64,000 nt of DNA from Mobula hypostoma. Taxonomy: Eukaryota. Below, piece by piece: positions 25,475 to 63,644 of this stretch. The notes under the pieces are model-generated. The model made no database searches and was not told where the DNA came from. It saw only the letters and a program-made list of their open reading frames with translations. Each line of letters begins with the position of its first letter. The first letter of the stretch is position 1. The position numbers and the translations under genes are program-made. Location of the stretch: assembly GCF_963921235.1 (NCBI RefSeq), contig NC_086108.1:9796001-9860000 (forward strand). The letters are read 5' to 3'.

Positions 25475-26177
25475 ATAATAAAGGTGCATAGTTCCCTGAA
25501 GGTGGAATCTCATGTGGATAGGGTGGTGAAGAAAGCTTTTGGTATGCTGGCCTTTATAAATCAGAGCATTGAGTATAGGAGTTGGGATGTAATGTTGAAA
25601 TTCTACAAGGCATTGGTGAGGGCAAATTTGGAGTATTGTGTACAATTCTGGTCACCGAATTATAGGAAAGATGTCAACAAAATAGAGAGAGTACAGAGAA
25701 GATTTACTAGAATGTTGCCTGGGTTTCATCACCTAAGTTACAGAGAAAGGTTGAACAAGTTAGGTCTTTATTCTTTGGAATGTAGAAGGTTGAGGGGGGT
25801 CTTGATAGAGGTGTTTAAAATTATGAGGGGGATGGATAGAGTTGACATGGATAGGCTTTTTCCATTGAGAGTGGGGGAGATTCAAACAAGAGGACTTGAG
25901 TTGAGGGTCAGAGGGCAAAAGTTTAGGGGTAACATGAGGGGGAACTTCTTTACTCAGAGAGTGGTAGCTGTGTGGAATGAGCTTCCAGCAGAAGTGGTTG
26001 AGGCAGGTTCGATGTTGTCGTTTAAAGTTAAATTGGATAGATTTATGGACAGGAAAGGAATAGAGGGTTATGGGCTGAGTGCAGGTTGGTGGGACTAGGT
26101 GAGAGTAAGAGTTCAGCATGGACTAGAAGGGCCAAGATGGCCTGTTTCCCTGCTGTAATTGTTATATGGTTATATGA
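25475..26177 (+). mobile_element. 5'-truncated CR1 LINE (ORF2 C-terminus plus 3' tail)
   Basis: ORF 25484-26098 contains LEYCVQFWSP, LSYRERL, FFTQRVVAVWNELP. It ends in a GTTATATG repeat tail. Confidence 0.92.
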
Positions 26178-26493
26178 TTATAAGATCTCAAACTTTGCCA
26201 AACTTCTCTAGATGTATGGTGGAGTGCATATTGATTGATTGCATCAATTCCCTTGAATGGAAAATCCTACAAAAGGTAATGGATGCGGCCCAGTCCATCA
26301 CGGGTAAATACCATTGAGCACATCTACATGAAATGATATCGCAGGAAAGCAGCATCCATCATCAGGGACACCCACGATGCAGGACATGTTCTCTCCTCGC
26401 TGCTGCCATCAACTAGAAGGTACAGGAGCCTCAGGACCCACACCATCAGGTTCAGGAACAGTATTCACCACTCAACCATCAGGCTCTTGAACC

Positions 26494-27340
26494 TGTTACG
26501 TACCCCGTAACTGGGTTGCCAAACCAGCAGAAATGGATCACTCAGTTGGAGTCTGGATTACTAGAACTAAGAAAGTTTTATTAAAGAAACAAGCAACACA
26601 GTACTCTAATCAAAAGGATAATAAATGCAACAGTTCAGCAATGATAAACACACATGTACACAGAATTAAGATAACAGGATTAATCAAGCTCTATTGCTGT
26701 CTAGGGGTAAATGACCAGTTTCAAAGTGACGCAAAGTTCAGTTCAGTTTGCAGTAATCGCTGCCGTGGCGATGGACAGTGGGGGGGGGAGGAGAGAGAGC
26801 AAAAACGAATGAATATTCAAGGCTTCCACACGGACCTTCGCAGTCAGCTTTCGGGCGAGTCCTTTGTGATGTCATCTGAGGTCACCGACCGTGACCCCCT
26901 CCGTTTCCAGATACGATCGTTTCCCTGTGCTGAACCTGGCACCCAGGCAAGGGTGGACACACACCAGGTTCCTGCCGATCGTGCCTTTCCACCCTGTGTG
27001 GTTATGGCCTGGTACTTCCCACAGACTTGTGAGAGGCGCACCGCTTCCAGGGTCTCGTTACCTCGGGTGTCGTGTGTGTCCTGCCTTAGCGAACCTGTCC
27101 CTTTTTATCCCCCTGCTGGGGTATCGCCTGTCCATCACTTCAAACAGTTCAGGGTTCAAAGGGGGAACCGCTCTTGACAGCTCCCTCCTTCTGTTACTCT
27201 CTCTCCCGTCCCTTCATTACACACCTCCAAATGTTGCTCTATTGTTTTCCTTATCTCTCTCTCTCCTGAAGACAGGTGGCAGACCAACTGCTGATCACAC
27301 AGGACAGCTAACATCTTAATCTATGTGTACTCTTGTCACA
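26494..27340 (-). repeat. 3' LTR (847 bp)
   Basis: Runs TGTTACGTACCCCG...CTTGTCACA. Abutted by the polypurine tract. Confidence 0.95.
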
Positions 27341-27352
27341 CTTCCCCCCTTT
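27341..27352 (-). promoter_or_regulatory. Polypurine tract (AAAGGGGGGAAG)
   Basis: Plus-strand CTTCCCCCCTTT lies immediately internal to the 3' LTR. Confidence 0.9.
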
Positions 27353-27716
27353 AAGGATTTTTACCTGGGGATAAAAATTACAAACATGAATACATTATTT
27401 GATACACACAAATATACATCTTTATCAGCTATTTGGCTAATACAGCGAGTTTGAAGTTGTCAACACCTGACAGACAGTCAGCCATCACATTTTCTGTTCC
27501 TTTTATATGTGTTATTAATAATCCCTTAGACCAGGCTCCAACTTAGCAAACTTCATAGTGGCCAAAAACACTGATGAATTGCGATCAATGTAACCTCTCA
27601 TTGGGTTTCGTCTCGGACCACAATAACAAGGGTCGTCCCATTCCGACTTAGTTTTCTCTCGCAAAGGCTTAGTAGGAGGGGGAGGGGTGGTAACCGCAGA
27701 GTTATTGCAAAACTTC

Positions 27717-30332
27717 CTACAGTACCCCCACCATCTCCAAGAGCCTTCTGAGGGCCCTCTTGTCTGTCAGGGTTGGGATGTCAGAGATAGCCCGCACCTT
27801 AGCTTGCATCGCTGCCAGTTGCCCCTGTGTCACCACAATTCCCAGGTAAGTGACCCTCGTGTGGCCGAACTCATTTTTTTCAAGGTCCACTGTCAAGCTG
27901 GCTTCAGACAGCCATATTAAATTGCCAATACACACCTCTGTGTTCGTCAGCCCTTTTGTCACCGAATTACTCATTCTATATGGATGTTGCTTACTAGGCT
28001 GACCTAGTGTAACAGACACCACCCAGCATCCCAGTTCTTTGCATCGCCTCGGGACAATCAAACACACGAGTGCGAGTCGTTTAATTACTTCCCCTAAAGA
28101 GTCGCTTTGTTCGGGGATTAAGGGAGAGACCTTATCAGCAGAGTTGGCCGAAACAATAGCCTTCTCCCATCTGGTCGATACCATACTCATCTTTTCGAAA
28201 TGGTTTTTCTCTCTTATCAGGGGGACCCTAGCTTCATTGATTTCCTCGCTAGCACCGACTAGGCTTGTTAGCATATCAAAAGCCTGTGACCGTCTCAGTT
28301 CGCGTCGGTCATAATCAATAACATCCTCCCTCCTGGACAGCCGGTAAACCTCTTTCATGATTCCACCAACTGTTCCCTCCAGTACCACAAAATGTCCACC
28401 GGGGGCTACCTTGTGGGCCAGGTTAAAAACCTCATCCCCATAACTCTTTTGCACCACCCCCCATTCCTCATCTGTGGGTACTGTACTTGATTTCCCTTTC
28501 TTCCTTAGCACTTCCTCCTCCACCAAAACCATCAGCCCCTCATCTCGCTCCTGCGTCTGCACAAATTCTTTCCTGGCTACTGCTACATCTGTCCCAGCTC
28601 CCTCACTACCTCTTGTCTCACTACACTCCTTCTTTTCACTTTCTACCCCCGTCTCGTACAAGGCTGGCAGAAACGTTTCAGCTAAATTCACTACCGCGGT
28701 CCCGTGATGAACCTGTGAGTCCATGGGCAGGGCCTCAATGCTGGCAGGCTGACCTGTCAATCTCACGACTGAGAACACGATTCCCCTGGCGACGTCATTA
28801 CCAAGCAAGACTTCCACGCCTTTCATCGGTAATTCGGACCTCACCCCGATCGTGACTAGTCCAGAGACCAGGTTGCTTTGTAAGTGTATCTGGTGCAAAG
28901 GGACTGACTCTGTCCCTTCCCCAACACCTTTGACCTTGACCTCCCCAGTCTGGGTCTCTGAGCTAAACTCTAATACACTCTTCAATATTAGTGACTGACA
29001 CGCTCCCGTGTCTCTCCAGATCCGCACTGGAACTGGTTTTAACCCCTCCTTCACTGACAGCAATCCGGCCGAGATAAACTTCTCGCGCCCTTCCTGAACT
29101 TTGGCAGACCTGTCCTTCCCTAGCAGTTCGTTTACCAGCTCGATACAGCCAGTCAAAATCGCCGTTTTTCCTTTTCCCGTCTCCTTCTTTGGGGCAAAGC
29201 ACCTGGACGCAAAGTGTCCGACTTTCCTGCAATTATAACAGACGACCCCAGGAGACTTCCTACCAGACTGCTCCCGGTCTACCTTATCCTTCTCGCTAGT
29301 CCCCGGCTTACTTTCTGACTTTTCCGGCGGACTCTCCCCGCCGTCCTGACTACCCTTCTGGTAGCCTTTACTCGGGGCAAACTTTATTTTATGCGTCAAC
29401 GCATACTCATCCGCTAACTTAGCAGTTGCGGCTAACGTGGCTGCCTCTTTCTCATCGAGGTAGGGTCTCATACATTCAGGGACACAACCTTTAAACTGCT
29501 CAATCAGGATCAGCTGTAGCAGTCTGTCATAATCCCCCTCTACCCCCTTCGAGGTGCACCAACGCTCACAATATGTCTGCATCTCACAGGCAAACTCTAA
29601 ATACGTGCGGTCCCACTGCTTCCTCGCATTCCGGAACCTCTGCCGATATGCCTCCGGGACCAACTCATAAATCCTGAGGATGGCCTCTTTCACCACCTCA
29701 TACCTCTGGGCATCTTCCGCGGACAAAGCTGAGTAAGCTTCTTGGGCTTTCCCTTTCAGTACACTCTGAAGCAAAACAACCTACTTATCCCTCGGCCAGT
29801 CCTGACTTATAGCGACTTTTTCGAAATGGAGAAAGTACCGATCCACGTCGGTATCATCAAATGGGGGAACCAGCCTAACCTCCTGGGTTGCCCGGAACCC
29901 TCCACCTTGGTTCGGCACGGGCCCCTGCTCTGCCCTTATCTTTAACTTCTCCAGCTCGAATTTCCTTTCCCTCTGTTTCTCCTCTCGCTCCAGCTGTCTC
30001 TCTCTCTCTTCTCGCTCCAACTGTTTGTCCCTCTCTTTCTCTTCTCACTCCAGCTGCCGTACCCGGAACTCGTGCTCGAGTCTCAGTTTTTCAAGCTGCA
30101 CCTGTACCGCGTCTCCAGCAGGTTTTTCAACAGATACCACCCCCAGCTCGCCTTGGGGAAACACACCTTTAGATACATAGTGCTCTACGATAGCTCTGTG
30201 TATCTCCTCTCTCCTCATTGTCGACTTCCCCTTAGCAAGATTCAACCGTTTGGCCACAGCTACCAATTCTGATTTCCTGGCATCCTCTAATGCCTCCAAG
30301 GTTGGCGCCTTTATAATTTCCTCAGCCTCCAT
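27717..30332 (-). pseudogene. gag-pro-(deleted pol) polyprotein in one reading frame with two premature stops
   Basis: ORFs 30045-30332, 29781-30020 and 27717-29774 share a frame and are separated by TGA (30045-47) and TAG (29781-83). Motifs: VPPFDD..VDRYF.HFEK capsid, CYNCRKVGHFASRC knuckle, RDTGA protease, LAH..GH integrase remnant, KQHPYR and VTYLG RT remnants. Confidence 0.9.
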
Positions 30333-30408
30333 TTCTGCTGTTCGTCTTTTCTTTCTTTCGGGAATTTTGACCCAATCAATTTACTCCGTCCCAAATTTAG
30401 CGTTCAAA

Positions 30409-30427
30409 ATCTCGGACGAGAACCCCA
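30409..30427 (-). promoter_or_regulatory. Primer-binding site, tRNA-Pro-like
   Basis: Minus strand TGGGGTTCTCGTCCGAGAT, 4 nt inside the 5' LTR. The canonical tRNA-Pro PBS is TGGGGGCTCGTCCGGGAT. Confidence 0.8.
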
Positions 30428-30431
30428 CTTA

Positions 30432-31289
30432 TGTTATGTACCCCGTAACTGGGTTGCCAAACCAGCAGAAATGGATCACTCAGTTGGAGTTTGGATTACT
30501 AGAACTAAGGAAGTTTTATTAAAGAAACAAGCAACACAGTACTCTAATCAAAAGGATAATAAATGCAACAGTTCAGCAATGATAAACACACATGTACACA
30601 GAATTAAGATAACAGGATTAATCAAGCTCTATCGTTGTCTAGGGGTACATGACCAGTTTCAAAATGACGCAAAGTTCAGTTCAATTGAGTTCAGTTCAGT
30701 TCACAGTAATCACTGCTGTGGGAGATGGACAGTGGGGGGAAGGAGAGAGAGAGCAAAAACGAATGAATATTCAAACGGCTTCCACACAGACCTTCGACAT
30801 TCTTCGCAGTCAGCTTTCGGGCGAGCCTTTTGTGATGTCATCTGAGGTCACCGACCGTGACCCCTCCATTTCCAGATACGATCATTTCCCTGCGCTGAAC
30901 CCGGCACCCAGGCAAGGGTGGACACACACCAGGTTCCCGCTGATCGTGCCTTTCCACCCTGTGCGTCTATGGCCCGATACTTCCCACCGACTTGTGAGAG
31001 GCGCACCGCTTCCAGGGTCTCGTTACCTCGGGTGTCGTGTGTGTCCTGCCTTAGCGAACCTGTCCCGTTTTATCCCCCTGCTGGGGTATCGCCTGTCCAT
31101 CACTTCAAACAGTTCAGGGTTCAAAGGGGGAGCCGCTCTAGACAGCTCTCTCTCCCGTCCCTTCATTACACATCTCCAAATGTTGCTCTATTGTTTTCCT
31201 TATCTCTCTCTCTCCTGTAGACAGGTGGCAGACCAACTGCTGATCACACAGGACAGATAACATCTTAATCTATGTGTATTCTTGTCACA
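30432..31289 (-). repeat. 5' LTR (858 bp)
   Basis: Runs TGTTATGTACCCCG...CTTGTCACA. Colinear with 26494-27340 apart from scattered substitutions and small indels. Confidence 0.95.
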
Positions 31290-31789
31290 AACCAAAGGAG
31301 ATAAATTCACTCAACTTTACTCACCCCATCACTGAAATGTTCCCACAACCTTTGGACTCACTTTCAGGGACTCTTCATCTCATCTTCTCAATATTTATTG
31401 CTTTTTTTCACTACTTTCTTCTTCTTGTCTTTGCACAGTTTGTTGTATTGTGCCCTCTGGTTGAACACCCTAGTTGGTGCGATTTTCCGTTGATTTTGTT
31501 ATGGTTATTAGATTTGCTGAGTTTGCCCACAGGAAAGTGAATCTCAGTGTTGTGTATGATGCCAGATATGTACTTTGATAATGAATTTGCTTTGAACTTT
31601 TTCAGACACTGCTTGACCTGCTGATTTCCGTAGCATTTAGTGACTGTCGCTCTGGAGATGCATAGTCCTGTTTTCCAGCTTGCTCTCTGCTTTGCCATCA
31701 CAGGAGATGATTCTACCTATTGCTGCTTGGAACAAGACGAAGGAGCAGAATTAGACCATTCGGCCCTTCAGGTTTGTTCTTGAAAGCAC

Positions 31790-37745: not shown

Positions 37746-39255
37746 CCACACGCAGACTGCCACATCCGGAGGCATCGAGCGTGAGGCTGGTAGTTAGTAC
37801 TGAACATCTGCTTCAATGATTATTTTCTTCTTCAGTGCTTGAATAGGCAAGACCGGCAATAAATGGAGTCGATCACGGGCTCGCATCCCATCTCCAGGCT
37901 CCCTGCTTTGCTCGCAGCCTTGTGGATCTTTCTCAGAGACAGCGAAGTGCCAGATTGCTTGATCGGCTGAAAACCACACTGCTAGGATGTACTGCGTTCA
38001 ACAGTAGCAGAACCACATCCAGGATTGGATCAAAGGATCTACTACTACTACTACGTCGACTCAGGCCTGGGGGGCCGGCGTCGGGCACGATGACTGACTC
38101 TCCACTTCTCCCTCTCCCTCATCAGTGTGTTCAGTTCATCTACATTAGCCACGCCGCTGCCTTCTAGGAGCATGTTGACCATAGTCTTGGGAGGGCGCCC
38201 AGGGTTCATCCTCCCGTGCTTGGGCTCCCATATGACGACTAGGCTGGCAGGTAGCTCGGGGTGGCGTAGACAGTGCCCCACTAGTTGCAGTCTTCTCGTC
38301 TCGATTTTAGTGGAGAGCATCGGTAGGTCGTTATAGAGCTTGATGTTCATCATGTGCTGTTGCCTACTCATGTCAAGAGCCATCCGGAGCATTCGTGTAT
38401 AGCAACCATCTAGAGACTTTCGCATAGTCTTGGTGAGTGTCCACGTCTCACATCCGTACGTGAGAATGGACTCTATGACTGCTATGAAAATCCTCTTTTT
38501 AAGCCCTCTGGTCAGGTTCGACTTCCAGATTTCCTTCATGTCGTTCATAGCCCTCCACGCCAGCGCCTTCCATATCTTTATGTCCTTCTCCGAACTCATC
38601 ATTCTTGACCTGAGGTACTTGTAGTCAAAGACTTTCTTAATGGTATCATTCTTTATGGTCTTGAGAGTACCTTCATCACAGTTAAACGCCATGTACTCTG
38701 TCTTTTTAGTGTTTAGGTGAAGTCCAACTTTATTGCACTCAATTTCCACTTTTGTCAGTAGCTGCTGTGCTTCCTCCATCTGGTCAGAGAGCAGGACTAT
38801 GTCATCTGCAAAATCGAGATCTGTGAGCATAACTGGTCTGACCCTTTTGGTTCGTCCTGGTTTTATGGTAAAACCAAGCTTGTCATGATCTTTGGTAGCT
38901 TGATGCAGAGCGTAATCAAGGACGATTATATAGATGTAGGGTGCCAGAGTGTCTCCTTGCAGCACACCAGCTAGGAGCTCGAACACTGCTGTTTCTCCGT
39001 CTGGTGATACAACTTCCGCCATGGTTTTGGTATAGCTAGACTCTATTGCTCTCAGTAGATGGTCTGGCGGATTCTGCAGGGAGCGCTCATGGAGTGAGGT
39101 CGTCTCTCTGGCTTCTCTCCATTCCCGTTATCCTTTTTAACCTATGATCTCCTTGATTTAATCAACCTTAAGTACACCAGAAGACTTACTTTATCTCTCT
39201 GACTTACTGATTAATTGATTTCCTTTTGTCAACTGCAACTTTTGAGCTTAAAGAA

Positions 39256-40149
39256 ATGAGTACGAGATCTAAAACCAAAGATGGGAAAGACGCTGATGGG
39301 AACGGAGGAAAGAAGAAAGGTGACTCTAAACAAACGGAATTAACTTACGAAGTTATGATGAAGTGTTTGGAGGAAATGTTTGAGCAGCATCAGATAAAAT
39401 TATCTGAAAGTTTAACTGCTCAATTTGAACAACATTGTCAAAGCCTCAATGAAGATTTAAAATCAATCACTGATTCTTTGAAATCCCTGAATTCTGATGT
39501 TCAAAAACACGATGCAAAAATTTCTGAGCTGGATACTAAATCTCAGAAGACGGATAGAAAAGTTGAGATCTTAGAGAAGAATCTAGCTTCGACTGCTAAA
39601 CAGCTCCAACAACTTAAATCCAAAGTTATTGATCTTGAGAATCGATCGAGAAGACAAAATTTACGTTTAATTGGCTTACCCGAGGACGTTGAGGTTGGAG
39701 GTCCTGTAATATTCTTTGCTCAACTTTTAAAGGATTCGTTCGGTTCAGTTTTTCCCAACGATCCTCCATCACTCGACCGCGCCCATCGTATACCGTGGGT
39801 AAAGTCGGCAGCGGCTGTTTCCAAACCCAGACCACTTATTCTTCATTTCCATTATGTTAATGTTAAAGAACAACTTCTCCAGACTGCTCGTCGACAAAGG
39901 ATGATCAAGTATCGCCAGCATTCCTTCAGGATAGTTCAAGACTATAGTCCTGAAGTGATGAAGGAACGACTGACTTTTAAACCTTTAATGTCGGAATGCT
40001 ATCAAAAAAATCTCAAACCGGCACTATTGTACCCTGCACGACTCAGAATCTCTCTTCCTGATGGAAATCGTCGTGTCTTCCACTCTACAACTGCCGCTCG
40101 AAGGTTTTTGGATGATAATTTCCCATCTGATACAGACACCCTCTCTTAA
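39256..40149 (+). CDS. L1 ORF1p (coiled coil plus RRM/CTD RNA-binding protein), uninterrupted
   Basis: Coiled coil followed by DLENRSRRQNLRLIGLPE, LDRAHR, PRPLI and LLYPARLRI. First ATG at 39256. Confidence 0.9.
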   Translation: MSTRSKTKDGKDADGNGGKKKGDSKQTELTYEVMMKCLEEMFEQHQIKLSESLTAQFEQHCQSLNEDLKSITDSLKSLNSDVQKHDAKISELDTKSQKTDRKVEILEKNLASTAKQLQQLKSKVIDLENRSRRQNLRLIGLPEDVEVGGPVIFFAQLLKDSFGSVFPNDPPSLDRAHRIPWVKSAAAVSKPRPLILHFHYVNVKEQLLQTARRQRMIKYRQHSFRIVQDYSPEVMKERLTFKPLMSECYQKNLKPALLYPARLRISLPDGNRRVFHSTTAARRFLDDNFPSDTDTLS

Positions 40150-40532
40150 TTTGTGTCTGGTGTTTCCAGCACCAATTTTTTTTTCTCTCTGGTGTTTTTC
40201 TTCAAAATAAACCTTCTACTACTGTGCGATGAAGGTTTTTTATAAGTCTAAGATTTTTGTTCTTTGTTTATTACTATAGTGATTATTCTATAACTTATAT
40301 AGAATATTTATCTCCTGTGAGTAACATCATTTTCCCTCAGTTAACCTTTTGTTTTAACTTTTCCTTTTTCGTTATTACTAATGATCCGATCCGACGGTCA
40401 TTTGTAGTTATATGTTTCCTATTTTTGGTTTTCGCATAATTAAAATGGCGACTTGTCTTTCTTTTTGTATAATCTCCTTTGTTTTTTTTGGGACGCCATG
40501 CTCTTATGCTTCTTCTTCCCATAATCCATTTT

Positions 40533-43497
40533 TAGAAACATAGAAACATAGAAACATAGAAAATAGGTGCAGGAGTAGGCCATTCGGCCCTTCGAGCCTG
40601 CACCGCCATTTATTATGATCATGGCTGATCATCCAACTCAGAACCCCGCCCCAGCCTTCCCTCCATACCCCCTGACCCCTGTAGCCACAAGGGCCATATC
40701 TAACTCCCTCTTAAACATAGCCAATGAACTGGCCTCAACAGTTTGCTGTGGCAGAGAATTCCACAGATTCATCACTCTCTGCGTGAAGAAGTTTTTCCTA
40801 ATCTCGGTCCTAAAAGGCTTCCCCTCTATCCTCAAACTGTGACCCCTCGTTCTGGACCTCCCCAACATTGGGAACAATCTTCCCGCATCTAGCCTGTCCA
40901 ATCCCTTTAGGATCTTATACGTTTCAATCAGATCCCCCCTCAATCTTCTAAATTCCAACCAGTACAAGCCCAGTTCATCCAGTCTTTCTTCATATGAAAG
41001 ACCTGCCATCCCAGGAATCAATCTGGTGAACCTTCTTTGTATTCCTCTATGGCAAAGATGTCTTTCCTCAGATTAGGGGACCAAAACTGCACACAATACT
41101 CCAGGTGTGGTCTCACCAAGGCCTTGTACAACTGCAGTAGTACCTCCCTGCTCCTGTACTTGAATCCTCTCACTATAAATGCCAGCATACCATTTGCCTT
41201 TTTCACCGCCTGCTGTACCTGCATGCCCACTTTCAATGACTGGTGTATAATGACACCCAGGTCTCGTTGCACCTCCCCTTTTCCTAATCGGCCACCATTC
41301 AGATAATAATCTGTTTTCCTATTTTTGCCACCAAAGTGGATAACTTCACATTTATCCACATTAAATTGCATCTGCCATGAGTTTGCCCACTCACCCAACC
41401 TATCCAAGTCACCCTGCATCCTCTTAGCATCCTCCTCACTGCTAACACTGCCACCTAGCTTCGTGTCATCCGCAAACTTGGAGATGCTGCATTTAATTCC
41501 CTCATCCAAGTCATTAATATATATTGTAAACAACTGGGGTCCCAGCACTGAGCCTTGCGGTACCCCACTAGTTACCGCCTGCCATTCTGAAAAGGTCCCG
41601 TTTATTCCCACTCTTTGCTTCCTGTCTGCTAACCAATTCTCCACCCACACCAATACCTTACCCCCAATACCGTGTGCTTTAAGTTTGCACACTAATCTCC
41701 TGTGTGGGACCTTGTCAAAAGCCTTTTGAAAATCCAAATATACCACATCCACTGGTTCTCCCCAATCCACTCTACTAGTTACATCCTCAAAAAATTCTAT
41801 GAGATTCGTCAGACATGATTTTCCTTTCACAAATCCATGCTGACTTTGTCTGATCATTTCACCGCTTTCCAAATGTGCTGTTATCACATCCTTGATAACT
41901 GACTCCAGCAGTTTCCCCACCACCGACGTTAGGCTAACCGGCCTATAATTCCCCGGTTTCTCTCTCCCTCCTTTTTTAAAAAGTGGGGTTACATTAGCCA
42001 CCCTCCAATCCTCAGGAACTAGTCCAGAATCTAACGAGTTTTGAAAAATTATCACTAATGCATCCACTATTTCTTGGGCTACTTCCTTAAGCACTCTAGG
42101 ATGCAGACCATCTGGCCCTGGGGATTTATCTGCCTTCAATCCCTTCAATTTACCTAACACCACTTCCCTACTAACATGTATTTCACTCAGTTCCTCCATC
42201 TCACTGGCCCCTCTGTCCCTTACTATTTCTGGAAGATTATTTATGTCCTCCTTAGTGAAGACAGAACCAAAGTAATTATTCAATTGGTCTGCCATGTCCT
42301 TGCTCCCCATAATCAATTCACCTGTTTCTGTCTGCAGGGGACCTACATTTGTCTTTACCAGTCTTTTCCTTTTTACATATCTATAAAAGCTTTTACAGTC
42401 CGTTTTTATGTTCTCTGCCAGTTTTCTCTCATAATCTTTTTTCCCCTTCCTAATTAAGCCCTTTTTCCTCCTCTGCTGAACTCTGAATTTCTCCCAGTCC
42501 TCAGGTGAGCCACTTTCTCTGGCTAATTTGTATGCTACTTCTTTGGAATTGATACTATCCCTAATTTCTCTCGTCAGCCACGGGTGAACTACCTTCCTTG
42601 AATTATTCTTCTGCCAAACTGGGATGAACAATTGTTGTAGTTCATCCATGCAACCTTTAAATGCTTGCCATTGCATATCCACCGTCAATCCTTTAAGTGT
42701 CTTTTGCCAGTCTATCTTAGCTAATTCACGTCTCTCATACCTTCAAAGTTACCCCTCTTTAAGTTCAGAACCTTTGTTTCTGAATTAACTATGTCACTCT
42801 CCATATTAGTGAAGAATTCCACCATATTATGGTCACTCTTACCCAAGGGGCCTCTCACGACAAGATCGCTAATTAACCCTTCCTCATTGCTCAAAACCCA
42901 GTCCAGAATAGCCTGCTCTCTAGTCGGTTCCTCGACATGTTGGTTCAAAAAAACCATCCCGCATACATTCCAAGAAATCCTCTTCCTCAGCACCTTTACC
43001 AATTTGGTTCACCCAGTCTACATGTAGATTGAAGTCACCCAATATAACTGCTGTTCCTTTATTGCACACATTTCTAATTTCCTGTTTAATACCATCTCCA
43101 ACCTCACTACTACTGTTAGGTGGCCTGTACACAACTCCCACCAGCGTCTTCTGCCCCTTAGTGTTACACAGCTCTACCCATATCGATTCCACATCTTCCC
43201 GGCTTATGTCCTTCCTTTCTATTGCGTTAATCTCTTTTTTAACCAGCAACGCCACCCCACCTCCCCTTCCTTCATGTCTATCCCTCCTGAATATTGAATA
43301 TCCCTGAACGTTGAGCTCCCTTCCCTGGTCACCCTGGAGCCATGTCTCTGTGATCCCAACTATATCATAATCATTAATAACAATCTGCACTTTCAATTCA
43401 TCCACCTTATTACGAATGCTCCTTGCATTGACACACAAAGCCTTCAGGCGCTCTTTTACAACTCTCTTAGCCCTTGTACAATTATGTTGAAAAGTGG
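40533..43497 (-). mobile_element. CR1 LINE with nearly complete ORF2 (endonuclease + RT, three frameshifts), inserted between L1 ORF1 and ORF2
   Basis: CVNARSIRNK, GITETWL, GDFN, SDHN; then YLDFQKAFDKV, GVPQGSVLGP, KFADDTK. Tail reads (TAGAAACA)3 on the plus strand from 40533. Confidence 0.95.
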
Positions 43498-43941
43498 AAG
43501 CTTCTTTTGGAAGCGATTTTTTATTTACTCGCTTATAATTAACTAATTATATGTACTGATACTGTTTTTCTTATTTCATATATTTTAGTAATTTTTACTA
43601 TGTAGACTAATTTACTATACTGTTTATTTTTCACACATATTAGTTTTCGGGAGGTCACTTATTTAACATATATTTTTGGAGTTGCCCCCTGCAGAAATGG
43701 GGTTAAAGTTAGTATTAGTCCTTTTTTCAGCCTTCTCTGGCTTAGTTTGGGGTTCTACTTGGGGTTGGGGGAGGGGGTTGTCTTTTTCTTTTCTAATTTT
43801 TTCTATTGGGCTGATTCAGAACTACAAAGATGTCCGAAGTGTCGAGATTTCCGGTTCCTCTCTAATCATGTATTCCTCTTCCGATTTCATGAGCTCACAT
43901 TATGGTTAACCCCTTACTTACCAAAGGGTTAATTTTTAGTT

Positions 43942-46900
43942 ATGGCTCATACTATTAATTTTGTCTCTTGGAATACAAATGGTTTAAACCATCCAATAAA
44001 ACGGAAAAAGATTTTCAAAGTGTTCCAAAGACTGAGTGCTCATATTATTTTTGCACAAGAGACTCATGTAAGGAAAGAGGACAACGCTTCTTTAAGTTTT
44101 GGAAAAGACAACAATACCATTCAAATACTCAAGACAAAATTAAAGGCGTTTCAATTTTTATTGATCCCTCAATTACATTTATTCATCAAGACATTATTTC
44201 AGATCCTAATGGCAGATTTCTGTTAATTACTGGGGTACTTTTTAATAAAAAGGTCGCTATGGTTAATGTTTACGTTCCGAATGTGGATTATCCTGAATTC
44301 TTTAAACACTTATTCACTTCCCTTCCTAATTTAAACGAGTATATGTTGATAATGGGCGGTGATTTTAATTTATGTTTGAATCCCATGTTGGACAGATCCA
44401 TAGGTAATCCGGCTTTACCGAACAAGTCGGCTATTATTATTAACTCTTTTATGTTGGATTCTGGGATTTCAGAAATTTGGAGATTTCTACATCCAAATGG
44501 TAAGGAATTCTCCTTTTTTTCACATGTACATCATTCTTTTTCCCGAATTGATTATTTCCTGATTGACTCTCGTTTGATTCCATATGTAGTTGATTGTAAT
44601 TATGACATTATTGCTATTTCAGATCATGCTCCAATGAAACTTTCCATCAAGTTAATGGATACCTTTTGTATTAGTAGACAATGGTGATTTAACCCTATTT
44701 TGCTTCAAGATCAGGACTTTGTCAAATTTATAAAGGAGCAGATTGATTTCTTCTTTTCAACTAATACTACGGAAGAAGTTTCCAACCGAACTGTTTGGGA
44801 CGCCTTTAAAGCTTATATCCGTGGTCAGATTATTTCCTGTTCGGCTGGTTTGAAAAGACATATTAACAATGAAATACTTCTGTTGGTTGATAAAATTAAA
44901 GAAGTCGATAAAAAATATGCTATTTCTCCCAGTAAGGAGCTGTACAAACACAGAGTTGAACTCCAATTGGAACATAGCTTATTATTAACATCCTCGATTG
45001 AAAATCAATTAATGAGAACTAGAAGTGATTTTTATATTCATAGCGATAAATCGGGTAAATTACTGGCTAACCAATTGAAATTTGATTCGGTTAAACGTCA
45101 AATTACTAAGATTCGCAAACAGGATGATACTTTCACAGTTGATCATGTTGGGATAAACCAAACCTTTCAAGAATTTTATACCTCTTTATATCACTCTGAT
45201 TTTCCTCATGATTCTAATTTCATGCATGATTTTTTAAGTAAATTGAGTTTTCTGAAACTATCACCCGAAAATTGCCTATCATTAGAAACTTCCATTTCAG
45301 AGGAAGAAATAATAACTGCAATCTCATCATTGAATTCCGGTAAAGCACCCGGTCCGGATGGGTTTACAGTGAAATTTTTAAAATTTTTTTCCTCCATTCT
45401 TTCTTCTAAGTTGTCTAGAATATTCAAGGAAGCAATCAGTTTAGGTAAATTACCAGAATCGTTTTATGAAGCCTCTATTTCCTTAATTCTTAAAAAGAAT
45501 AAAGGTCCTACTGATTGTGCATCATACAGACCGATATCTCTTCTGAATGTAGACTCTAAAATTTTTTCAAAAATTCTAGCAACTAGACTGGAGAAGGTGT
45601 TACCTCAAATTATTTCTATGGATCAAACTGGATTTATTAAAAATCGCTATTCATCCTTTAATATTAGGAGGTTAATGAATATTGTTTACACCCCCTCATT
45701 GTTTACACCCCCTGAGAAAGCCTTTGACAGAGTTGAATGGCCTTATTTATTTAATGTTCTTGAGAAATTTAATTTTAATTTGACGTTTATATCTTGGATT
45801 AAATTGTTATATTACTCCCCAGTAGCTTCGGTTTGTACAAATAATTATAGATCTCCTTTTTTTCGTCTTTTTTGTGGTACTAGGCAAGGTTGCCCTCTTA
45901 GTCCTTTACTATTTAATATTGCTCTTGAACCTTTAGCAATTGCTATTCGTGACTCACCAAATATTGTTGGTATTACCCGTGGAAACAAAATACATAAATT
46001 ATCATTATATGCAGATGATTTGTTGTTATACACCTCTAACCCGGAGAAGTCAATTCCTGCTATCCTAGATCTGTTAGCTCAATTTAGTAACTTCTCTGGT
46101 TACAAATTGAATCTTAGTAAGAGTGAATTATTCCCTTTAAATAAGCATGTACCTATTTATGGATGTTTACCATTTAAATTGGTTACTGATTCATTTATAT
46201 ATTTAGGGATAACAATTACGAAAAAATATAAAGATTTATTTAAAGCTAATTTTTTACCTTTAATTGACCAGATTAAACTTTTATTTACCAAATGGTCCCC
46301 AATCTCTTTGTCTTTGATTGGTCGGATTAATGCTATTAAGATGATCATTTTGCCCAAATTTTTGTATATATTCCAATCGGTTCCAATTTTTATCCCAAAA
46401 TCATTTTTTGATAATGTAGATTCAAAAATTTCCTCATATATTTGGCAGAATAAAAATCCCAGGTTAGGTAAAAGGTATCTACAGAAATCTAAAAAGGGGG
46501 GGGGGGGCTTGCCCTCCCGAATTTTAGATTCTATTATTGGACTATTAATATTCGATATTTAAAATTTTGGTTACAAGATTTGGACGCATCTTTAAACCCT
46601 CATTGGGTAAATCTTGAATCTAATTTATTACAAGGGTTTTCCTTGGGTTCGGTCTTAGGAACTTTACTTCCTTTCACTTCTTTTAAATCATATAAACAAA
46701 TGAACAACCCAATAGTTAAGCATACTTTGCGTATATGGTTTCAATTCCGAAGATTTTTTGGGTTTAATCAATTTATTCTAGCAAGTCCCATTATATCAAA
46801 TTTTCTTTTTCAACCTTCCACGATGGATCAAGCTTACTTTGATTGGAAAACCAAAGGTACAATATCTTTTTGTGAGTTATTCTTGGATAACTGTTTTATG

Positions 46901-47701
46901 TCTTTTGATCAACTCTCTAATAAATATAACTTACCCAGATCTCACTTTTTTAGATATCTACAGATCAGAAACTTTTTAATTACTGTCTCTCCTAATTTTC
47001 CACACCCATATCCAATGGACACTTTGGAAAAAATCTTAGATTTAAATCTCTCTCAGAAAAGTGTAGTAGCAAATATATATAATATAATTATGAATCTATG
47101 TCCTGATGCTTCTAATAAAATCAAAGCTGACTGGGAAAGAGAACTTGAGATTAATATACCGACTGAAAAATGGGAAAAAATTCCTCAGTTGGTGAATTCA
47201 TCCTCTGTATGTGCTAAGCATAGGTTGATACAGTTTAAATTAGTGCACAGGGCTCACATGTCCAAAGATAAACTATCTCGTTATTACTCTTATATTAATC
47301 CAATATGTGACAGATGTCATTCCAAGATAGCTTCTTTAACCCACATGTTTTGGTCATGTCCCTTGTTGGAGAAATATTGGAAAGATATTTTTGATATTAT
47401 TTCAACGGTCCTAAATATAGACTTACAACCTCATCCAATTACTGCTATCTTTGGACTACCAATGATAGACTTAAATAATTTAACCTCTTCTTCACGAAGG
47501 ATGATTGCATTTCTTACTTTAATAGCTAGAAGGTCCATTTTGTTGAATTGGAAAGAGATCAACCCTCCTACTGTATTTCATTGGTTTTCACAAACTATGG
47601 TGTGTTTGAATTTGGAGAAAAATAGAAGTGCAGTTTATGACCCTTCCATTAAGTTTGAAAAAACTTGGAGGCCATTCATTCAGCATTTTCATTTGACGTA
47701 A
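43942..47701 (+). pseudogene. L1 ORF2p (APE endonuclease, RT, CCHC), disrupted
   Basis: SWNTNGLN, QETH, GGDFN, SDHAP, RQGCPLSP, LYADD, CDRC...HMFWSC. Lesions: frameshift ~44080, stop 44685-87, motif-A lesion ~45700, frameshift in G12 at 46496-46507. Confidence 0.93.
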
Positions 47702-52334: not shown

Positions 52335-52596
52335 TACATATATAATATAAAATAAGCAATTAAATAAATAAATAATACTGAGACCATGAGTGGTAGAGTC
52401 TGCAAAAGTGAGCTCATGCTCATATGCTGTGGAATCAGTCCAATGTTGTGGTGAGTGAAGTTATCCACACTGGTTCAGAAGCCTGATAGTTGAGGGGTAA
52501 TAACTGTTCCTGAACCTGGTGGTGTGGGACCTAACGCTCTTGTACCTTCTTCCTGATGACAGCAACGAGAACAGAGCATGTCCTGGATGTTGGAGT

Positions 52597-62430: not shown

Positions 62431-63644
62431 TATATAACCATGTAACAATTACAGCAAGGAAACAGGCCATCTCGGCCCTTCTAGTCCATGCCGAACGTTT
62501 ACTCTCACCTAGTCCCACCGACCTGCACTCAGCCCATAACCCTCCATTCCTTTCCTGTCCATATAGCTATCCAATTTAACTTTAAATGTCAATATCGAAC
62601 CTGCCTCAACCACTTCTGCTGGAAGCTCGTTCCACACAGCTACCACTCTCTGAGTAAAGAAGTTCCTCCTCATGTTACTCCTAAACTTTTGCCCTTTAAC
62701 TCTCAACTCATGTCCTCTTGTTTGAATCTCCCCCACTCTCGATGGAAAAAGCCTATCCATGTCAACTCTATCTATCCCCCTCATAATTTTAAATACCTCT
62801 ATCAAGTCCCCCCTCAACCTTCTACGTTCCAAAGAATAAAGACCCAACTTGTTCAACCTTTCTCTGTAACTTAGGTGCTGAAATCCAGGTAACATTCTAG
62901 TAAATCTTCTCTGTACTCTCTCTATTTTGTTGACATCTTTCCTATAATTCCGTGACCAGAACTGTACACAATACTCCAAATTTGGCCTCTCCAATGCCTT
63001 GTACAATTTTAACATTACATCCCAACTCCTATACTCAATGCTCTGATTTATAAAGGCCAGCATACCAAAAGCTTTCTTCCCCACCCTATCCACATGAGAT
63101 TCCACCTTCAGGGAACAATGCACCATTATTCCTAGATCCCTCTGTTCTACTGCATTCTTCAATGCCCTACCATTTACCATGTATGTCCTATTTTGATTAG
63201 TCCTACCAAAATGTAGCACCTCACATTTATCAGCATTAAACTCCATCTGCCATCTTTCAGCCCACTCTTCTAACTGGCCTAAATCTCTCTGCAAGCTTTG
63301 AAAACCTGCTTCATTACCCACAATGTCACCTATCTTAGTATCGTCTGCATACTTACTAATCCAATTTACTACCCCATCATCCAGATCTTTAATGTATATG
63401 AGAAGCAACACTGGACCCAGTACAGATCCCTGAGGCACACCACTAGTCACTGGCCTCTAATCTGACAAAGAGTTATCCACCACCACTCTCTGGCATCTCC
63501 CATCCAGCCACTGTGAATCCATTTTACTCAATATTAATAGTTAACGATTGAACCTTCCCAACTAACCTTCTGTGTGGAACCTTGTCAAAGGCCTTACTGA
63601 AGTCCATATAGACAACATCCACTGCTTTACCCTCATCAACTTTC
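62430..63644 (-). mobile_element. CR1 LINE RT/3' portion, same subfamily as 25475-26177
   Basis: ORF 62509-63450 has GVPQGSVLGP and KYADDTK. Its C-terminus is nearly identical to ORF 25484-26098. Confidence 0.93.

Follow-up and report, generated by a model that had tools for sequence, protein, structure and literature searches.

Translation itself as a possible target of selection in a non-autonomous family of Gmr1-type LTR retrotransposons from Mobula

A Gmr1-type LTR retrotransposon of 4.8 kb was located on the minus strand at 26494–31289 of the window, by which we mean the whole 64,000-nucleotide stretch of Mobula hypostoma DNA that was analysed (contig NC_086108.1, positions 9,796,001–9,860,000 of the forward strand). 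The analysis points to a non-autonomous Mobula family in which selection has favoured translation to near the 3' end and not the product of that translation, a reading to which we assign a probability of roughly 0.55. The family would then offer a natural and countable example in which an open frame is selected but its protein is not, something that for retroelements has so far been argued mainly from one mouse subfamily.

Structure and condition of the copy in the window

The element is present as a single copy in the 64-kb window. Its features are given below in the direction of transcription; coordinates within the ORF were counted by hand and may be in error by one codon.

31290–31293, no strand: right copy of the target site duplication, AACC, 4 bp (flank sequence)
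30432–31289, minus: 5' LTR, 858 bp (LTR alignment)
30409–30427, minus: primer binding site (PBS), altered in the window copy; contig loose end at 30420 in run X15
29079–30332, minus: gag, with N-terminal helical domain, E/R/K/Q coiled coil, capsid and CCHC knuckle
30045–30047, minus: in-frame gag stop of the window copy only; family proteins read through
29781–29783, minus: second in-frame gag stop, window copy only
about 29388–29657, minus: SCAN-like C-terminal domain of capsid (Pfam SCAN PF02023, E=1e-12)
about 29199–29240, minus: CCHC knuckle (Pfam zf-CCHC, E=6e-5)
28770–29078, minus: aspartic protease, DTG motif near 29004–29012
28302–28769, minus: tail 1, linker plus what is left of the integrase N-terminal part, with the His pair but not the Cys pair
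about 28523, minus: in-frame 54-nt gap in tail 1, shared with P0296; contig loose ends at 28523 and 28525
28301–28302, minus: junction 1, ~290 aa of integrase gone in frame (Cys pair, DDE core and C-terminal domain)
27972–28301, minus: tail 2, integrase C-terminal end, linker and start of RT
27972–27977, minus: junction 2, ~126 aa of RT gone in frame; two-residue repeat at both ends
27626–27971, minus: tail 3, RT motifs 5–7 and thumb remnant
27914–27917, minus: junction 3, 18 aa gone in frame past a degenerate YxDD; absent from P0006
27725–27729, minus: 1-nt slip in a homopolymer run, copy-level
27625–27626, minus: junction 4, ~86 aa of connection and RNase H gone in frame
27518–27625, minus: tail 4, RNase H remnant, with a family-wide frame-changing deletion at ~27553 followed by 12 out-of-frame codons
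27515–27517, minus: stop codon of the family ORF, the same end in 11 family proteins
27429–27514, minus: last pol codons (HIKG...ADCLS), beyond the stop in a different frame; length variants that change the frame are common
27341–27352, minus: polypurine tract (PPT)
26494–27340, minus: 3' LTR, 847 bp, polyadenylation hexamer at 26577–26582
26490–26493, no strand: left copy of the target site duplication, AACC, 4 bp (flank sequence)

Two direct LTRs with TG...CA ends, 33 mismatches over 829 aligned bases and 11 gaps (96% identity) were found together with a target site duplication, a PPT and an altered PBS, as expected of an LTR-retrotransposon insertion. The sequence-only reading had called all of these parts complete, which was confirmed for the LTRs, the PPT and the 4-bp duplication; the PBS, presumably of tRNA-Pro type, is present but unlike that of other contigs. 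The LTR pair also carries 10- and 16-nt indels and clustered mismatches. The two LTRs may derive from two subfamilies via recombination, in which case their 4% difference overstates the age of the insertion. Gag opens with a small, confidently modelled helical domain (30170–30270) that resembles Rho_N weakly, below the cut-off (E=0.0035), and within the coiled coil (29950–30060) copies differ by whole repeat units with a spread of ~80 residues.

The pol remnants are colinear with P0013, a full integrase-first polyprotein of 1558 aa, and all pol motifs previously listed were recovered in integrase-before-RT order. Residues of P0013 retained by the tail extend up to ~745 and then span ~1035–1151, 1277–1293, ~1312–1410 and 1497–1521. 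Autonomy calls for intact integrase DDE, RT YxDD and RNase H cores; measured against P0013, the window element has lost the Cys pair and DDE core of integrase, the greater part of RT and the core of RNase H, with about 420 codons past the protease vs about 1025 in a full Gmr1-type element. Pfam gave no match in the young tail, matches to Integrase_H2C2 and RVT_1 being retained only by the family protein P0006. A PDB sequence search returned knuckle and SCAN matches only, all with E above 0.01, and Rfam returned 0 matches within 26400–31400. An out-of-frame integrase match at 28145–28198 was weak (E=2.4) and was dismissed as chance.

The open frame noted earlier was confirmed and spans 687 codons (29780–27720), and the 1-nt slip in the run 27725–27729 is likewise present. 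The claim that all deletions keep the frame does not extend to the end of pol: the frame of YCRKFC and YIDRN stops at 27515–27517, and HIKGTENVMADCLS, which had been read as its continuation, lies in another frame beyond further frame changes. In fact, the last ~40 codons of the old pol are out of frame throughout the family. The state of gag had also been overlooked. Two in-frame stops interrupt it, and Gag-protease can therefore not be made by the window copy. In four runs, contigs without the slip base account for 26%, 52%, 100% and 100% of the depth, which places the slip at the level of individual copies. Residues unique to the window copy number 26 of 935, corresponding to ~1.4% nucleotide change, at which 1.2–1.8 stops are expected. 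With two gag stops and a slip of its own, the window copy is an ordinary decayed family member and not the working element that had been proposed.

Positions 1–24600 of the window hold a very long tandem array, built from a 21-bp unit and 18-bp variants of it, that shows strong strand skew (GC skew about −0.63) and contains long spurious ORFs. Two inverted pieces at 25477–26175 and 62432–63130, 94.6% identical over 699 bases, are taken by us to be CR1-like LINE 3' ends, named by reading only. An L1-like element, also named by reading only, extends over 39211–47701 (ORF1 at 39211–40149, ORF2 pieces at 43959–47701) and seems to be interrupted by an opposite-strand CR1-like element at 40638–43546. 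The Gmr1-type element itself was inserted beside or in another repeat (26377–26496) that recurs at 52469–52588 with 82% identity over 120 bases.

Copies of the family and the order of their losses

Family copies were drawn from gene models and contigs and not from a genome assembly; models of the former kind tend to be chosen for open frames and may conceal introns. Every close relative was a gene model from Mobula birostris or M. hypostoma. Junction 1 was found in 18 of 22 screened family models and junction 4 in 11 of the 22, ending at the stop seen in the window, and a single ORF of 939–1004 aa from the gag start to the family stop was observed in 5 of the 22; the remaining models end earlier. 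The internal region was matched by 17865, 8570, 237 and 711 contigs in four public runs with all 30 bins covered, counts that are evidence of a repeat family and not of copy number, for which contig depth was likewise not used. The deletion junctions are not private to the window copy but recur at many loci of both Mobula species, as the sequence-only reading had anticipated, and defects common to so many dispersed copies define a non-autonomous LTR family.

The order of the losses can be followed in surviving copies. P0135, a broken copy of the parent type, continues beyond junction 1 and reaches the Cys pair and core of integrase. P0006 lacks junction 3 but shares junctions 1, 2 and 4, and carries seven extra residues behind junction 1; one contig with 21 extra bases behind junction 1 matches it. 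Both P0135 and P0006 are known as gene models and were not seen as genomic DNA. A tree of the tail takes the form of a ladder that starts at P0006, passes the window-type copies and reaches a young subfamily of M. hypostoma, in which four further small tail losses (9, 7, 4 and 6 aa) were found. Contig loose ends at 27553 in two runs represent an older form without the last deletion, and the stop has therefore moved ~30 codons upstream without harm, family-wide. The 18-aa gap common to the window copy and P0296 does not correspond to a supported clade and may be recurrent.

Constraint on the tail protein and on its reading frame

Constraint on the protein was evaluated using alignment columns with a conservation of 80% or more among 43 autonomous relatives. 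The family protein P0004 keeps 108 of 127 such columns in gag-protease vs 67 of 128 in the tail (P=2e-8), while the 43 autonomous relatives keep 94% in both regions; for the protease the count is 38 of 46. Differences from P0135 in gag-protease avoid conserved columns (8/79 vs 34/102 variable columns, P=3e-4). No avoidance was observed for tail differences from P0006, which affect 46/118 conserved and 66/160 variable columns (P=0.71). Differences between two subfamilies amount to 38/347 in the tail vs 12/286 in gag-protease (P=0.002), and substitutions in the tail are as radical as neutral ones, with a mean BLOSUM62 score of −0.26 vs −0.29 expected under neutrality. In gag-protease, 6 subfamily-level changes were silent and 1 was replacing, vs 0 and 4 in the tail (P=0.015); these come from a small, non-random sample (40 of 544 variant rows) and do not amount to a true dN/dS. 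In the structure model of P0004, pLDDT is mostly above 85 in the gag helices and protease and mostly under 50 in residues 552–966, leaving the tail without a confident fold; the best match of the predicted structure is to retroviral proteases. Judged from these sequence comparisons, gag-protease is conserved and the amino acids of the tail are free to drift. The conserved-column counts support purifying selection on gag-protease, and the tail is catalytically dead, as had been proposed earlier.

The tail might be needed as a protein all the same, only as bulk or tether, with a Gag-protease-tail fusion acting in cis. Nascent Gag could, for example, be held on its own RNA, or the fusion could co-assemble with a helper Gag-Pol. 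This too predicts an absence of stops and fits with about 420 codons still being present, and the fusion protein of mouse IAP 1-delta-1 promotes retrotransposition in cis according to the consulted portions of PMC7411935 and PMC6466679. We consider it unlikely on the grounds that no residue class is spared among changes as radical as neutral ones, that the tail is still shrinking in the youngest subfamily and that the C-terminus has been swapped for out-of-frame codons throughout the family.

Maintenance of the frame was evaluated from stops and indels. The family differs from P0006 at 145 of 358 residues with zero stops, where 6.5–9.2 are expected from the mutation spectrum of contig variants (P=0.0015–0.0001). 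Among indels common to at least two loci, counted by eye, 16 of 19 keep the frame (P=7e-6 at a chance of one third). Some of these may be compensating pairs of shifts, which would point the same way. Frame breaks are shared in three cases: throughout the family at ~27553, in P0002 and P0005 (~100 codons early), and in P0008 and P0009, where the break lies in a homopolymer run and may be recurrent. The frame is thus kept far above chance, and in this respect the original observation stands.

It is quite unlikely, in our estimation, that this pattern arose without selection on the frame, from a few master copies, in-frame microhomology deletions and the choice of open-frame examples. In favour of such an origin, short repeats are in frame in 36–47% of cases in the ORF, above the 32–38% found in the LTR, repeated residue pairs occur at junctions 1 and 2, the gene models form an ascertained sample, some frame breaks are shared and the element was originally picked for study because it looked in frame. 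The excess of in-frame indels nevertheless persists at P=7e-4 when a chance of 0.46 is assumed, allowing for microhomology bias, and the missing stops are a separate signal. Contigs, moreover, are copies unselected by annotators. Frame-changing variants at 5% or more in the DNA-type runs were observed at 27366, 27467 and 27514 among 12 of 30 rows listed, all of them in the 177 bases behind the stop, and within the ORF the same rows contain only the slip of the window copy. Single-contig rows of run X9, guessed to be RNA, were set aside and the run was not used as evidence of expression. Together these observations suggest that the open frame is kept while the protein it encodes is not selected.

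A host-kept source gene, whose Gag-protease-tail protein would poison autonomous Gmr1 particles with the copies as by-products, is very improbable: a close intact helper was not found (best match 38%), several copies are annotated as transcribed isoforms and SCAN genes derive from Gmr1 gag according to an excerpt of PMC8321522, but thousands of contigs match, LTRs and a target site duplication flank the copy, subfamilies succeed each other in the ladder and the tail is unconstrained. A decoy had also been among the roles suggested for the tail at the outset; its neutral amino-acid drift argues against this and against any sequence-specific role of the protein.

Proposed mechanism and relation to known elements

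Selection for translation itself could have operated as follows. Deletions would arise through template switching at short repeats, which fits the repeated residue pairs found at junctions 1 and 2; splicing was also considered and may be an alternative source. RT and integrase would come in trans from an autonomous Gmr1 element, while the element would supply its own capsid and hence package its own RNA. With a single gag-pol ORF lacking an internal stop, Gmr elements would have no device that shields an extended untranslated stretch at the 3' end. If translation were cut short past the protease by a stop or frameshift, the distance from stop to poly(A) would grow from 933 to as much as about 2190 bases, and the longer untranslated part would lower RNA stability through nonsense-mediated decay (NMD), or else impair co-translational hand-over to Gag. 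Retroviral RNA with a long 3' UTR is exposed to NMD unless a stability element protects it, as stated in the accessible part of PMC2925335. Shortening of the tail in frame would thus be tolerated and win, variants with early stops would rarely found subfamilies, and the frame would be maintained open to ~40 codons before the old pol end. RNA stability and co-translational packaging would both fit the data and are inseparable here. Counting against selection for translation, the untranslated 3' part is already about 0.9 kb at present.

The best full polyprotein was 38% identical among 402 matches of 1204–3435 aa, so that no close intact helper was found, and RT relatives in a profile-free search starting from P0006 did not exceed 59%; both results are weak evidence of absence.

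By its domain order, single ORF, SCAN domain and similarity to integrase-first polyproteins, the Mobula element is classed as Gmr1-like. Gmr1-like elements have integrase before RT (PMC3587641) and Gmr elements a single gag-pol ORF (PMC11117352), as described in the sections of these papers that were available. The Mobula family shares with Gmr1-like Ty3/Gypsy elements the upstream position of integrase and the single gag-pol ORF (broken in the window copy), a SCAN-type capsid end of the kind described in the cited part of PMC8321522, and colinearity with full polyproteins at up to 38% identity. It is unlike them in being non-autonomous, with three enzyme cores gone and the tail past the protease reduced to the length given above.

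The mouse IAP 1-delta-1 subfamily is non-autonomous yet successful, and its deletion leaves a Gag-Pol fusion ORF that acts in cis with enzymes provided in trans (available text of PMC7411935 and PMC6466679). One fusion ORF is likewise left by deletion in Mobula, where cis action of the tail could be proposed by analogy only. The mouse element is betaretrovirus-like and carries a single 1.9-kb deletion that also removes part of gag, whereas in the Mobula family gag-protease is whole and at least 16 nested in-frame indels, surviving intermediates and a measurable neutrality of the tail are observed. Plant TR-GAG or GAG/PROT-only elements keep gag or gag-protease and lack the enzymes, some with decayed pieces of pol, in the definition given in the consulted part of PMC13570524. 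The Mobula family resembles them in its retained gag-protease and dead pol enzymes and differs in that its pol remnants remain fused in one frame; neither 'in-frame' nor 'open reading frame' appears in the main text of PMC13570524. Defective interfering RNAs of mouse hepatitis virus, so far as the source consulted describes them, offer an analogy of logic and not kinship, as they belong to a cytoplasmic RNA virus under laboratory passage, with no integration and no evolutionary series. We put forward tentatively, at a little under even odds, that the Mobula family is a defective-interfering-like vertebrate LTR lineage with a ladder of at least 16 in-frame indels, surviving intermediates and selection for translation as far as its 3' end. 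If true, single-ORF retrotransposons would not become gag-protease-only by way of a stop codon but would have to shrink in frame, a general rule that any genome could be used to test. No paper on the Mobula family or on a nested in-frame series was found in the literature searched, to which subscription journals, Repbase and Dfam did not belong, and the family may already be catalogued in the latter two.

The family makes testable both an origin of non-autonomous LTR elements by in-frame shrinkage instead of truncation and the action of RNA surveillance or co-translational packaging as a shaping force. It also cautions against inferring protein function from the length of an open frame, and it accounts for dozens of 'uncharacterized' and some misnamed Mobula gene models. 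P0004, P0293 and P0302 are named as isoforms of the host genes MACC1, UBE2G2 and PPM1Lb, yet they consist wholly or largely of the element ORF, which suggests annotation errors or LTR-driven chimeric transcripts. In P0141, P0232 and P0144 (a shrimp and a stingray among the sources) Gmr1 pol was observed with internal gaps in one frame; these gaps may be annotation introns or parallel cases.
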